A DNA stretch of 64,000 nt, taken from contig CAWBKB010000004.1 of the NCBI GenBank assembly GCA_963789265.1, positions 224,001 through 288,000 on the forward strand, in the 5' to 3' direction. The notes below the pieces were generated by a model. It was not told the origin of the DNA. It saw only the letters and a list, made by a program, of their open reading frames with translations, and ran no database searches. Positions 34,046-38,595 of this stretch are shown one piece after another. Numbering within the stretch: position 1 is the stretch's first letter; each line of letters starts with the position of its first letter. A program made the translations under genes and the position numbers. Origin of the DNA: an uncultured delta proteobacterium. Lineage in GTDB: Bacteria > Desulfobacterota > Desulfomonilia > Desulfomonilales > Desulfomonilaceae.

Positions 34046-34648
34046 ATGGATTTACATGCAAGAATTTTTTCGGACTTTATCTGACCCTTCTGCTACATCG
34101 GCAAGGGCATTGTCGAAGCATTGAAGAAAGAGTTTTCTTTCACAGACGAGTGGTTGGCCTACGAGCTGCGCCCCGAGATGCCGGCGGAGGGGATACCAAC
34201 CTCCAAGCTTTTCCCCGGGGTTGACCTGAAGAAACGTTACGAAAGCCTGAGCCGTGCCGGGGCTCCCTACGGGATTGCCTTCAACGAGATCTCGCTGGTT
34301 TCCAAGTCCCGCCTTGCATTGGAAGCAACGGAATACGCGCGAGACAAGGGACACTTTGATTCGTTTCATGGCCGGGTTTTCCATGCCTATTTTGTGGAAA
34401 CCCGTGATATCGGTAATCTAGATGTAATTCTGGAATTGGCGGATCAGGACGGGTTGAACCCTAATGACTTAAACCTGGCATTGCAAGAGAAGCGTTACGC
34501 TGAGCGTCTCGAAAAAGCAAAGCAGGAAGGACGCTTATACGGCGTCACTGCGGTCCCCACATTTATCTTTAACGGAGAACACAAAATCGTCGGCGCGCAA
34601 CCAATTGATGTTTTCAGAGAGAAATTACGAATGATCCAGGCGGAATGA
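34046..34648 (+). CDS. DsbA/FrnE-family oxidoreductase, probable selenoprotein (UxxC)
   Basis: MDLHARIFSDFI-TGA(34082-34084)-PFCYIG in frame with ORF 34121..34648 (AYELRP, GVTAVPTFIFN, GAQP). Confidence 0.88.
34091..34120 (+). promoter_or_regulatory. Putative bacterial SECIS element of the DsbA-like gene
   Basis: Stem TCGGCAA/TTGTCGA, loop GGGCA starting 20 nt after UGA, lower stem TGCT/AGCA. Confidence 0.7.
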
Positions 34649-34657
34649 CAAACCGCT

Positions 34658-34966
34658 CTACCCGGAATGTACCTCTTCATCTGACTCGATGACGCAGCAG
34701 CAAGCGGAACTCTTGCGCCCTAACGCTGCGTTGATCACTGCGGAGGCGCACCCGACGCCGGACCGTACCGACAACGCTTCGGCAGGGCAGTTTCGGGCGC
34801 ATGCGCCGCATTCCATGCATGCGTCCGGTTCATCAATGCCGACGCATCCGTTGTGCATGGAAAGCACAGCTTGAGGGCACACCTGGAGACACATACCGCA
34901 ACCTGTGCATTTAGCTTCATCAAGCTTCAAGGTTGCCACATTCTTTAAGTAAATCAGCCGACCCAT
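34658..34966 (-). CDS. hgcB: Mercury methylation ferredoxin HgcB
   Basis: Two CxxCxxCxxxCP motifs including CMECGAC, GVGCA, C-terminal CCC; directly downstream of hgcA. Confidence 0.93.
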   Translation of the reverse strand: MGRLIYLKNVATLKLDEAKCTGCGMCLQVCPQAVLSMHNGCVGIDEPDACMECGACARNCPAEALSVRSGVGCASAVINAALGRKSSACCCVIESDEEVHSG

Positions 34967-34979
34967 GGTTGGACTCCCT

Positions 34980-36164
34980 TCAAGCGGCCACGCGGGATCC
35001 GATCCAGAGGATGACCCCTATGCATGCCGCGGCGATTTCAAGCGGCACAGCCCATCCCATCTCTTTCTTAACCCCGGAAAGCGAAGTGTAAGTTGACGCG
35101 CCGGTAAAGTTCATTGCCAGATACGCGCTAATTGAGGGGACCAGAAAGAGCCAGGCGAGGACCTCGAGCCTGCCCGACCAATCTGCAAAAGCCGCGCTTC
35201 CTAGGAGAGCCGGGACTAACGCCGCTGCCAAGCCCAGAACGAACCCCTTGAGCGCAAAAGCTCTGCCGGGCAGCCACGGCAAGAGAATAGGAGTCAAAAT
35301 TGTCCCTGCCACCAGAGCCGCGAGAAGAGCCCACGCCGCGAATAAACCATGATCGAGGGCGCCTCGCCAGAACCCTTCTGAAGCTCTCAGACCTCCGGCC
35401 AAGAAAAACACGATAACGAGTATAAGGGCCCACTTTGCCGCGGTCACCAGTTCAACTGGAACTACAACGATTCTTTCCCATAGAGTAAATGTCTTTCGGC
35501 GCATTTCCGGAGTGGCCCTCAGTCCCGAGTCAATGAAAGCCGCCAAATCGGACGACCGCACCGGCCCGTATATGACTCTGAAACCGGATCGCCTCTTCAC
35601 TTCGTGGGCCGCGACGCCCGGCGCAGCCAATTGAGGAAGAATAACACGCCTGTGCGACACGATCTTAGCGAGGCCGGACGATTCGAGTCGCCCAACTAGT
35701 TCGTCCGTACCAAATGTCCCCTTGCCCGCCGCGCACCACACATTGACCCCATCAGTGTCCAGTACCAGAATCCATGCGTTCCGACCCGGTAAAGCCTGTC
35801 TCAAAGCATCAAAGCTCATCTTGTAGTTTGCCGTCACCAGTACCGGCGCGGTGCCGTCCGGCTGGCCGAGAGCATAGAGCCCAGGATCGACCATGTAATT
35901 CATCCGGCCGATATTCCACCTTGCCTTTATGCTTCCCCACCGATCCGTCGGCGTCAGATCCGCGGACACCCTCGGCAAAGTTCCGACTGTCGTAAGAATG
36001 GAGCCGGTGAGAAACGGCTGCTCGAGTCGAGGAAGGCTCGCCTGAGCCTTTTCTCTGGGCGGTCAGCACGAGAGGGTTGGAGTGGACGTCGAATCCGACA
36101 CAGTGCATGAATCGGAGGCCGCAGCGCGCCCTCGGTTGTCACAGTCGCATGCGCTTTGTTCCAT
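34980..36164 (-). CDS. hgcA: Mercury methylation corrinoid protein HgcA, probable selenoprotein (394 aa, Sec34)
   Basis: Cap-helix NVWCAAGKGTF, TANYKMSFD, C-terminal TMs with NFTGASTYTSLSGVKKEM; AGAGGAG SD before ATG 36164; single in-frame TGA at 36065-36063. Confidence 0.93.
36029..36055 (-). promoter_or_regulatory. Putative bacterial SECIS element of hgcA
   Basis: mRNA UGA-CCGCCCA-GAGAA-AAGGCUC-AGGC-GAGCCUU-CCUC: perfect 7-bp stem, loop 19 nt after UGA with G at loop position 2. Confidence 0.75.
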
Positions 36165-36303
36165 GGAAGAAACTCCTCTATTTTGTGTTCACAATCCTGA
36201 TCCGCACGGAAAGGTCCCATCTGCAAATTTCATGACGAAGGCACATTGGGCACGCTTCACATTTCCTTGAATTTGTTCCGCGACCTCTCCTTGAGAATAC
36301 TGC

Positions 36304-36780
36304 TTACTGGGGCTCTTGCCAATCAAAGCCGTTTTCAGCCAGAAGAGACCTCACCTTTTGATAGGTGCCTGCCACTATCCTGGGACACCTCGTCGGCGGA
36401 ATGCTGGGATCATCGAGTGTAATGTCACGGCACCTGATTCCGCCATAAATTTCACCATACTTCCCGGCAAACCAATCAACGAGCTCCTGGATCATGCACT
36501 TCATCTTGGGATTATCCTGCTCGTCAGATGAGCCTCTTCCTGCATACAAACCCAGCAGGCAGGCCCCTCCGGTAAGAGCCCCACAAGTCTCACCCGAGAA
36601 TCCGATTCCACCGGCCAGCGCGGACACGGCCTTGATAAGATCCGGATCGATTTTGCCCTGCGCCTCCAAGCCGGTGAACAGGAGGATCTCGCTGCAATGG
36701 AATCCTTGCTGCGCAAGCTCAATCATCCTCAGTTGCTCGGTAGTAAGTGAATTGACTGATGTAGCGAGGTTCGTTGGCAT
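36304..36780 (-). CDS. C-GCAxxG-C-C family putative redox-active protein
   Basis: GFHCSE, ETCGALTGGA, IRCRDI, RCP. Confidence 0.88.
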   Translation of the reverse strand: MPTNLATSVNSLTTEQLRMIELAQQGFHCSEILLFTGLEAQGKIDPDLIKAVSALAGGIGFSGETCGALTGGACLLGLYAGRGSSDEQDNPKMKCMIQELVDWFAGKYGEIYGGIRCRDITLDDPSIPPTRCPRIVAGTYQKVRSLLAENGFDWQEPQ

Positions 36781-36853: not shown

Positions 36854-37249
36854 TTACTCCCGAACACCTCGTCCATCGGTGAGACCTGACCCTGAAAGTC
36901 CAATTTCTCTGAGCGAGCGAAGGACAGGTGCGCGGCCTGTCAACAGTTCGATCAAGGCGCTCAGAGCTACCGCGTCAACCCAGCATTCAATGTTTTTCCC
37001 TCGCCTTTCCATTTTAATGAGTCCTGCTTGCCGGAGCTCCTTTATGTGATGAGAGACAGTGGAAAGCGTTATAGTCAGTTCTTGCCCCAGTTCCCCGACG
37101 TAACGTCGAGCCATAGCTTCGGAGGTGCACTTTGTGCCCGGTGGGCAACAGGAAATCAGGCGCAAAAAGATGTCGAGGCGATTGGGATTGGACAGCGCCT
37201 TGAACATTTCAGCGAAACGGCGGACTTCTTCGATACGATGATTTGACAT
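36854..37249 (-). CDS. ArsR/SmtB-family regulator
   Basis: FKALSNPNRL, SCCPPGTKC, STVSHHIKELRQAGLI. Confidence 0.92.
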   Translation of the reverse strand: MSNHRIEEVRRFAEMFKALSNPNRLDIFLRLISCCPPGTKCTSEAMARRYVGELGQELTITLSTVSHHIKELRQAGLIKMERRGKNIECWVDAVALSALIELLTGRAPVLRSLREIGLSGSGLTDGRGVRE

Positions 37250-37508: not shown

Positions 37509-38405
37509 TCAATCTGGATCAATGACGTTCCAGCCGCATGTCGCCCCCGGCGAGAAGCCTTTCTGCTGGGCGAGAACATCCAGATAAACCAGCCCGAGCG
37601 AGGCAGCCTCCCGGACAATGTCGTCGCATCGATCCCGGAGATCGATACTTACCAAGTATTTCATGCACTCATAGCACAGTTCGGCCCGCTCGAATTCGCG
37701 GTCTTCCGAGAACAGCAGTTCCAGTTTGTCCTGGTCTTCAGACTCGCAGAAAGGACACTTGATGCGCATGTAGCTCCATTCATGGCCGCAGAACGAACAC
37801 CTCAGCCATCTGCGCCCTTCTTTGCCTTCAAGAAAGCTTATTTCCGGCCAAGAACCGCAGATCGGACAGTATCCCTTGTGCCACTGAAGACCCTTGGGCA
37901 ACGGCAAGAGAGATTCCACCCGCTTATGCGCAAATGGCTTCGAGAATTGTCCCAGGACAAAATACAGAATGCCCGGGTCCACACCGAGGTCTGATGCGGT
38001 CCTTTCAATCTCTGTGCTCGAACAGCCCACAGCAGAGACCCAGAGCATTGAATCTAGATTTCCGCTTTCAATCGCACTTCTGATTGCGATCAATTGTGAC
38101 TTGATACGAGGGAATCCACGCTCCATGGCCGGCAGTAAATGTTTCGAGGCTTTTCGCAGGTCGGCAGTGGAAAGGCGAAAGGCGTCCCTGGTGAGGATGG
38201 GGACCCCTCGCGAATATTGAACAGAATCTACGGTCAAGTCATGCTCGGAGCTTATTGGAAGTTTGGCCTTCAGAGCTGCCTGCGCGGCCAAGAGCGCCTT
38301 AAACGCGTCAAATACCGTGGCAAGTTGCGGCAAACTCTCCCGCATGCCTTCTATGGCCCTTTGTACTCGCTCAGAAGCGTCTCTGCCGGACCGATCCTCG
38401 GTCAT
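37509..38405 (-). CDS. fdhE: Formate dehydrogenase accessory protein FdhE
   Basis: CPICGSWP, RWLRCSFCGHEW, CPFC, CYECMKYL; AGGAG before ATG 38405. Confidence 0.88.
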   Translation of the reverse strand: MTEDRSGRDASERVQRAIEGMRESLPQLATVFDAFKALLAAQAALKAKLPISSEHDLTVDSVQYSRGVPILTRDAFRLSTADLRKASKHLLPAMERGFPRIKSQLIAIRSAIESGNLDSMLWVSAVGCSSTEIERTASDLGVDPGILYFVLGQFSKPFAHKRVESLLPLPKGLQWHKGYCPICGSWPEISFLEGKEGRRWLRCSFCGHEWSYMRIKCPFCESEDQDKLELLFSEDREFERAELCYECMKYLVSIDLRDRCDDIVREAASLGLVYLDVLAQQKGFSPGATCGWNVIDPD

Positions 38406-38595
38406 GTTTTTCTCCTGAAAATGTCTGCGGCTCCATGTCATAAAAAAGCACGAAAAGCGATGAACGCGCAAGGTTCGGGAAAAATCTTCCCAACAGCCTT
38501 AAGGTTTATCAAACGCGCAGGCAACGATGGGCCTCTCCCTTCCCGTTCCCAATCAAGGTTCGCCCTCTTGCTCAGGAGAAGTTCTCTATTAGGAC

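Follow-up and report, generated by a model that had tools for sequence, protein, structure and literature searches.

An in-frame UGA and a downstream hairpin mark hgcA of an uncultured Desulfomonilaceae bacterium as a probable selenoprotein gene of an already described type

The DNA analysed here (the window) is a stretch of 64,000 nucleotides, positions 224,001 to 288,000 of the forward strand of contig CAWBKB010000004.1 (GenBank assembly GCA_963789265.1), from an uncultured delta proteobacterium of the family Desulfomonilaceae. On its minus strand lies hgcA, a marker gene for mercury methylators, whose frame is crossed by a single UGA. Read from ATG 36164, with U (selenocysteine, Sec) standing for the TGA, the frame gives MEQSACDCDNRGRAAASDSCTVSDSTSTPTLSC-U-PPREKAQASLPRLEQPF…, and no further stop is met until 34982-34980. 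Judged from sequence comparison, the window's hgcA is very probably a genuine selenoprotein gene, of a type already described for the HgcA family. The features of the gene, in window coordinates, are as follows.

36173..36179, minus strand: Shine-Dalgarno-like AGAGGAG of hgcA, with an 8-nt spacer to the ATG; its AGGAG core is kept in relatives
36162..36164, minus strand: ATG taken as the true start codon of hgcA, the sole start 3' of an in-frame TGA 10 codons upstream
34980..36164, minus strand: complete coding sequence of hgcA (394 aa), including the stop TGA 34982-34980, with matches to NF040863 and PF03599
36066..36164, minus strand: residues 1-33, a fast-evolving N-terminal arm, predicted to be disordered, that ends in Cys33 (TGC 36068-36066)
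36063..36065, minus strand: UGA probably read as selenocysteine, Sec34 (conserved TGA, Cys-Cys homologues, Sec machinery)
36033..36050, minus strand: hairpin of the selenocysteine insertion sequence (SECIS) type, stem AAGGCUC/GAGCCUU, loop AGGC (pairing, covariation, association with TGA-type genes)
35979..36062, minus strand: residues 35-62, a conserved segment (…SLPRLEQPF.TGS…) translatable only via readthrough of the UGA

The hgcA reading frame and its start

The gene call for hgcA begins at TTG 35978, and the ATG at 36164 lies 62 codons upstream of it. In the open reading frame listing this TTG is the first ATG, GTG or TTG 3' of the TGA, with no in-frame start between the two, and TGC 36068-36066 stands directly before TGA 36065-36063 in the hgcA frame. 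A first-pass annotation, made from the letters of the window, had pointed out the Shine-Dalgarno sequence, the ATG, the TGC-TGA pair, the lack of a start codon as far as the TTG, and a 7-bp hairpin whose AGGC loop begins 19 nt after the UGA; an exact re-reading and the listing agree with it on all of these. The AGGAG core and the ATG are retained in four of the four same-genus loci compared, and the Met stands at the same place in L016, L013, L014 and L015.

The product scores 467.6 bits against the HgcA profile NF040863 (cut-off 275) over residues 64-392, and it also matches PF03599. Since NF040863 leaves the N-terminal extension uncovered, family membership is uninformative on the arm. The HgcA cap-helix motif N(V/I)WC(A/S)(A/G)GK with its cobalt-ligating Cys is represented by NVWCAAGKG at residues 141-149, where W143 and C144 are invariant in alignments A2 and A3. 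An AlphaFold2 model (47 sequences, mean predicted local distance difference test score, pLDDT, of 77.0) predicts long helices at residues 228-256, 265-297, 303-327, 329-351 and 362-393, which would fit a C-terminal membrane domain of about five helices. The TGA is present in the contig of one public run (X1, depth of about 4) with zero differences, although X1 may be the source sample and hence is not independent; a second public run, X2, gave no cover across 35968-36072.

The TGA and its cysteine counterparts among relatives

The relatives sampled comprised 61 genomes (own genome, genus, family and class), searched with the HgcA profile, of which 32 had a match above the cut-off and from which 30 loci were returned. 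Of the 29 relatives' loci that are readable upstream, 21, the window locus included, carry an in-frame TGA 29-31 codons upstream of the core. Seven of the readable loci have no TGA, two of these being Cys-Cys, and the upstream frame of L017 is scrambled. L017, a second copy in genome G006 (contig C14, same genus), was excluded as not comparable before alignment A1. Its upstream frame is poorly conserved and holds four TGAs, unrelated sequence stands before the conserved post-UGA peptide, and genome G006 has further hgcA-like matches; the N-terminus of this copy may have decayed or been rearranged.

A second sample consisted of the best 80 of at least 595 candidate loci from public species genomes and is biased towards kin. 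The 110 loci combined fall by rule into 53 of TGA type, 28 Cys-Cys, 28 other or unreadable (among them L041, L086 and L087, which are unreadable upstream because of N or a contig end) and 1 duplicate. Two of the 53, L109 and L110, lack both the Cys and the context and were deemed probably misclassified, which leaves 51 credible TGA loci. In 44 of the 51 the distance from the TGA to the core is exactly 30 codons, and a Cys directly precedes U in 43. The other eight (L031, L081, L106, L035, L040, L050, L059 and L093) include two with U-C (TUC, GUC), and the rest have S, T or G before U; as far as these sequences go, the CU (Cys-Sec) motif is not universal in the HgcA family.

Full-length database homologues (alignment A2, n = 16) have Cys-Cys at the two aligned columns in nine cases, one Cys in five and none in two, so that the U column itself holds Cys in 11 of the 16, and the Cys-Cys homologues are encoded in a single uninterrupted frame. 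A pairing of Sec and Cys at the same columns, as read from these alignments, classically marks a genuine selenoprotein. Among the matches listed, 353-aa calls beginning immediately 3' of the TGA position make up 66 of 120 homologues, and 29 of 120 are at least as long as the stop-to-stop frame of 360 aa.

The SECIS-type hairpin

On the minus strand the two arms of the hairpin, AAGGCUC at 36050-36044 and GAGCCUU at 36039-36033, form a perfect 7-bp stem around the loop AGGC at 36043-36040. The hairpin begins 12 nt 3' of the UGA and its loop 19 nt after it. Perfect Watson-Crick stems of at least 7 bp with loops of 3-8 nt are found at 120 of the 128,000 positions on both strands of the window, a density that gives about a 1% chance of finding one in the 11-nt interval used. 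According to the bSECISearch model as given in a 2026 review (PMC13188914), bacterial SECIS elements have a loop of 3-9 nt, a stem of 4-16 bp and a G in the first two loop positions, and lie 16-37 nt from the UGA; the hgcA hairpin satisfies these rules.

Covariation was assessed in 21 aligned TGA-type sequences, 20 of them distinct. The 7-pair helix is paired in 92.1% of its cells, a share that falls to 29-49% on sliding the 3' partner by 1-3 columns, and two-sided changes, such as G-C to A-U, occur in four of the seven pairs. None of 500 column shuffles reached the observed covariation score or the paired-cell percentage; the count of two-sided changes was reached in 18 of the 500 and that of further pair types in 49. 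We then defined a SECIS-like hairpin as a stem of at least 5 bp with its loop starting 14-24 nt after the codon, a G in loop bases 1-2 and a folding energy of -5 kcal/mol or lower. By this rule a hairpin follows the codon in 45 of 53 loci of TGA type and in 1 of 28 of Cys-Cys type. In 39 of the 51 TGA loci the loop begins 19 nt 3' of the codon, and the loops are mostly AGGU, AGUU or AGGC, in agreement with the bacterial SECIS model of the review. The SECIS element claimed by the first-pass annotation has thus held up as a conserved and covarying hairpin.

Selenocysteine machinery

The genome (a 6.06-Mb assembly) was searched for the Sec machinery, and selA (507 bits), selB (386 bits, above the cut-off), selD (360 bits; its frame contains a single TGA, in the context SGUAAK) and one tRNA-Sec with anticodon tca were recovered, so that all four of the genes selA, selB, selC and selD that had been proposed for checking were found. 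As far as gene content goes, the organism can make selenoproteins. The selD gene (L010; G000 contig C7, 193442-194362, minus strand) reads …ASGUAAKL…, and SelD would thus itself be a selenoprotein here.

The N-terminal arm and the segment after the UGA

The two sides of the UGA differ in how they evolve. Among the loci of the genus, the arm before U is 33 codons long in five of five, and its non-synonymous changes exceed the synonymous ones; in the segment after the UGA third-position changes predominate. Residues 1-40 have pLDDT below 50 and are predicted to be disordered, consistent with the flexible arm described in the first-pass annotation, and residues 51-70 reach a pLDDT of 91, with predicted strands at 52-58 and 61-66. 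These two strands form a beta hairpin in the model, which a TTG start at residue 62 would split. Residues 35-61 hold a family-wide Q-P-F motif, and Q49 and F51 are invariant in alignment A2. Since residues 35-61 have no start of their own, yet are conserved, change in a coding-like manner and supply half of a predicted two-stranded sheet, the short gene call at TTG 35978 is, on the sequence comparison and the model, very unlikely to be right in this genome.

The first-pass annotation had further drawn the arm as a C6/C8/C20/C33-U34 site. Of this the C33-U34 pair stands, and the fixed site of four Cys plus Sec finds no support: C6 and C8 are already missing from the nearest relative, which alone retains C20, and the other members of the genus have their arm cysteines at differing positions. 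The conserved feature of the arm, by these alignments, is a C-U pair on a flexible tether, with no fixed multi-Cys site.

Gene neighbourhood

Five further features surround hgcA.

34658..34966, minus strand: hgcB, a 102-aa ferredoxin (NF040864, 116.9 bits vs cut-off 99)
36304..36780, minus strand: gene for a DVU_1555-family C-GCAxxG-C-C protein, upstream of hgcA (NF045669, 161.2 bits vs cut-off 103)
36854..37249, minus strand: gene for an ArsR/SmtB-family metalloregulator, upstream of the cluster (NF033788, 57.9 bits vs cut-off 55)
34046..34648, plus strand: DsbA-like gene with in-frame TGA 34082-34084 (U-P-F-C), convergent with hgcB (PF01323, 99.8 bits)
37509..38471, minus strand: FdhE-like gene adjoining the ArsR gene (TIGR01562, 55.4 bits, below the cut-off, with only the C-terminal Cys-rich part matching)

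hgcB starts 16 nt after the hgcA stop, and HgcB position 73 is Cys, not Sec. The C-terminus of HgcB here and in L016, the nearest relative, reads …CCCVIESDEEVHSG or …CCCVIEPDAEEQSG, followed by a TAA or TAG stop; both proteins lack a terminal Cys-Cys, which is present in 17 of 24 other relatives inspected. An ArsR-like regulator of hgcAB is described for strain ND132 in the available part of a preprint (10.1101/2022.10.17.512643).

In the DsbA-like gene the PF01323 match (residues 7-194) spans the TGA, which occupies the first position of the redox motif U-P-F-C, and 14 nt after the TGA comes a hairpin with loop GGGCA. Gene callers would begin this gene at TTG 34121. Its TGA and its adjacency to hgcAB are kept in seven of the 110 hgcA loci, in two genera, and from its sequence it is a second hidden selenoprotein gene beside hgcAB; DsbA-like UxxC selenoproteins are an already listed kind (PMC13188914).

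Scans for promoters and terminators around hgcA found nothing beyond consensus-level matches. One of these, a sigma-70-like match (TTGGCA, 17 nt, TATTCT) that runs across the end of the C-GCAxxG-C-C gene at 36294-36322 on the minus strand, lies some 130 nt upstream of the hgcA start and is of consensus level only, four such sites being found in the region where 2.1 are expected.

Discussion

The first-pass annotation had proposed that HgcA here is a 394-aa selenoprotein which gene callers truncate, and the machinery, the conserved TGA, the Cys-Cys homologues and the hairpin all support it; we hold the selenoprotein interpretation of the UGA with strong confidence. We also infer, with high confidence, that insertion of Sec at codon 34 would be SelB-dependent. 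Translation would start at ATG 36164 behind the AGGAG Shine-Dalgarno sequence, and the UGA at codon 34 would be decoded as Sec by SelB and tRNA-Sec, directed by the 7-bp hairpin with its G-containing tetraloop, which lies 12 nt downstream within the coding sequence. The product would be a 394-aa HgcA whose first ~40 residues form a disordered cytoplasmic arm, with the vicinal Cys33-Sec34 pair separated by some 15 residues from the corrinoid-binding domain's first structured strand. In mercuric reductase, vicinal Cys pairs on mobile tails take up Hg(II) by ligand exchange. By analogy, the thiolate-selenolate pair of HgcA might take Hg(II) in the same manner and then either hand it to the methyl-corrinoid site or clear methylmercury from that site, a role that we prefer for the arm, tentatively and with modest confidence. 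Since there is no alternative start before residue 62, a failure of Sec insertion should give a 33-residue peptide only and no functional HgcA, and HgcA synthesis would then depend on selenium.

It could be argued that the UGA is an ordinary stop, that translation of hgcA begins at TTG 35978 or else at some non-canonical codon 3' of the UGA, that the upstream 33 codons are a leader peptide or an untranslated leader, and that the hairpin is regulatory or due to chance. Gene callers do pick TTG 35978, more than half of the homologues among the matches listed (the 66 of 120) are calls that begin after the TGA, the NCBIfam HgcA profile starts at residue 64, and the arm upstream of the UGA evolves fast. 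We nevertheless consider this explanation very unlikely. No ATG, GTG or TTG is available from the UGA to residue 62, and residues 45-61 are conserved in the family, evolve like coding sequence and fall in a confidently predicted beta hairpin. Moreover, the frame of the TGA and its spacing of 30 codons are kept in 44 of 51 loci, the Cys-Cys homologues have one unbroken frame, and the hairpin goes with TGA-type genes (45 of 53 such loci, but 1 of 28 of Cys-Cys type). Readthrough of the UGA without Sec, i.e. by near-cognate insertion of Trp or Cys or under a reassigned code, is extremely unlikely, given that both hgcA and the DsbA-like gene end at TGA, so that TGA is a stop in this genome, and given the complete Sec system and the SECIS-type hairpin. 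Hardly credible at all is that the TGA arose through faulty assembly or base calling, or that a nonsense mutation recently turned a Cys-Cys gene into a pseudogene: the site is covered by the contig of one public run only, at a depth of about 4 and possibly from the source sample, but the same TGA recurs in 50 other loci from separate assemblies and is accompanied by a matching hairpin and an intact downstream frame.

A different alternative accepts the Sec arm as real and makes the Cys-Sec pair a redox centre, where a reversible selenenylsulfide on a mobile tail passes electrons or protects the corrinoid or Fe-S centres without binding mercury. The vicinal C-U pair on a tail predicted to be disordered would suit such a role, and so would the thiol-redox neighbours, namely the DsbA-like U-P-F-C selenoprotein (beside hgcAB in seven loci) and the C-GCAxxG-C-C family protein. 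The Gly-Cys-Sec-Gly tail of mammalian thioredoxin reductase offers a selenenylsulfide analogue. On the other side, the Cys-Cys and multi-Cys versions with extra cysteines resemble soft-metal sites more, and in the available part of their preprint Haft and Gwadz (bioRxiv 10.1101/2022.07.06.499078) tie CU motifs to metal handling (SAO system, MerT-family proteins). We rate a purely redox function as rather unlikely, while noting that redox and Hg-binding roles of the pair are not mutually exclusive.

Several observations weigh against the selenoprotein interpretation or against a function of the arm. The 86-nt stretch around the hairpin is not stabler than its shuffles (z -0.70), and the case for the hairpin rests, with so unremarkable a fold energy, on its position and conservation. 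Eight of the 53 TGA-type loci fail the hairpin rule (L034, L059, L072, L075, L081, L093, L109 and L110), and the hairpin overlaps the conserved peptide K-A-Q-x-S-L, which may contribute to its conservation. The stem is, however, retained where the peptide differs (e.g. K-T-R-T-S-L and Q-V-R-V-G-L), and it is also tied to TGA-type loci, so that peptide constraint is probably not the sole cause. A scan of 35900-36300 gave no Rfam match at E up to 10, a result that says little, because bacterial SECIS elements are not expected in the coverage of Rfam. The loci compared are kin, so the counts given above exaggerate the independent support. The pentapeptide here is SCUPP, unlike the PCUGP that, in the available part of the Haft and Gwadz preprint, is perfectly conserved in their 20 proteins (20/20). 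Among our 51 TGA-type loci CUP is the commonest motif (30) and PCUGP occurs once, so that by these sequences PCUGP looks like a feature of the preprint's 20 proteins and not of the whole HgcA family, and SCUPP would be no bar to membership. As to the function of the arm, its residues apart from C33-U34 are poorly conserved. According to the available part of a 2024 PNAS paper, ND132 HgcA made in E. coli with an N-terminal His tag supports Hg methylation in lysates; if that construct used the old start, catalysis in vitro does not require the arm, whose role would then be an accessory one in acquiring the metal or in regulation.

The hidden Cys-Sec arm of HgcA is already a known kind, described in 2022-2023. 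The available part of the preprint states that selenoproteins with an N-terminal CU motif make up the majority of HgcA proteins, that 20 of 20 HgcA genes examined extend to 363-400 aa via one UGA, and that reference data were supplied to the NCBI annotation pipeline. Its journal version is J Bacteriol 2023, as cited in the portion of the 2024 PNAS paper available, and a 2026 review lists HgcA (NF040863, motif CU) in its selenoprotein table. The first-pass annotation's caution that CU extensions of HgcA may have been published was therefore justified, and no novelty attaches to the arm itself. The available SECIS passages of the preprint do not treat hgcA. What is added here, a small novelty, is a description of the hgcA SECIS element with its covariation, the contrast between Sec and Cys loci, and the SCUPP motif, although Figure S7 of the preprint may already show CUP-type motifs.

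A joint reading can be envisioned in which hgcA, hgcB and the convergent DsbA-like gene make up a selenium-dependent module, with HgcA made only with Sec, its Cys-Sec arm replacing HgcB in Hg(II) delivery, and the U-P-F-C protein recycling the arm selenenylsulfide. The arm would have taken over delivery because HgcB lost its usual terminal Cys-Cys, and HgcA would be made only with Sec because there is no fallback start. We regard the whole of it as a long shot, decidedly improbable; were it true, selenium supply would control, through translation, how much Hg can be methylated in such soils.

The correct start matters in several respects. Many database entries of this marker gene are truncated at the UGA, and the correct hgcA start is needed in annotation and in expression constructs. 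Mechanistic models of Hg(II) delivery must account for the arm, and a Cys-Sec site might be among the molecular connections behind the antagonism of selenium and mercury that has long been noted. The hgcA SECIS hairpin is well defined and could serve for the automatic calling of such genes.

Comparison with known systems

The corrinoid-binding domain of HgcA (residues 89-212) matches the large (gamma) subunit of the corrinoid iron-sulfur protein (PDB 2h9a, 4c1n and 4djd, E 8e-14). Unlike HgcA, that subunit has no transmembrane domain and no Cys-Sec arm, and it takes part in a different reaction. The PDB holds no HgcA structure, and these large subunits are the nearest solved relatives. The arm itself recalls the vicinal-Cys tails of MerA and the tail of thioredoxin reductase, in which adjacent soft ligands likewise sit on a flexible terminal arm. 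Those tails carry a metal ion, or electrons, to an active site that is buried. They have no homology to the HgcA arm, which is N-terminal and whose function is putative.

Vicinal Cys-Sec as in HgcA is also found, according to the available part of the Haft and Gwadz preprint, in SaoL, SaoB and SaoC of the SAO system and in MerT-family selenoproteins, which are tied to mercury-like or organometallic chemistry. These proteins have folds unrelated to that of HgcA, carry their CU at or near the C-terminus, and are not encoded at this locus. The hairpin is like the bacterial SECIS consensus in being a stem-loop within the coding sequence, with a 4-nt loop that has G at position 2 followed by another G, and a 7-bp upper stem; a likeness in sequence to the SECIS element of E. 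coli fdhF is not claimed. The closest likeness is to the HgcA proteins with CU extensions described by Haft and Gwadz. Here, too, a single UGA lies upstream of the called start with Cys before Sec, the predicted length of 394 aa lies inside the 363-400 aa that they give, the genome has the Sec machinery, there are Cys-Cys homologues, and the gene is truncated by gene callers.

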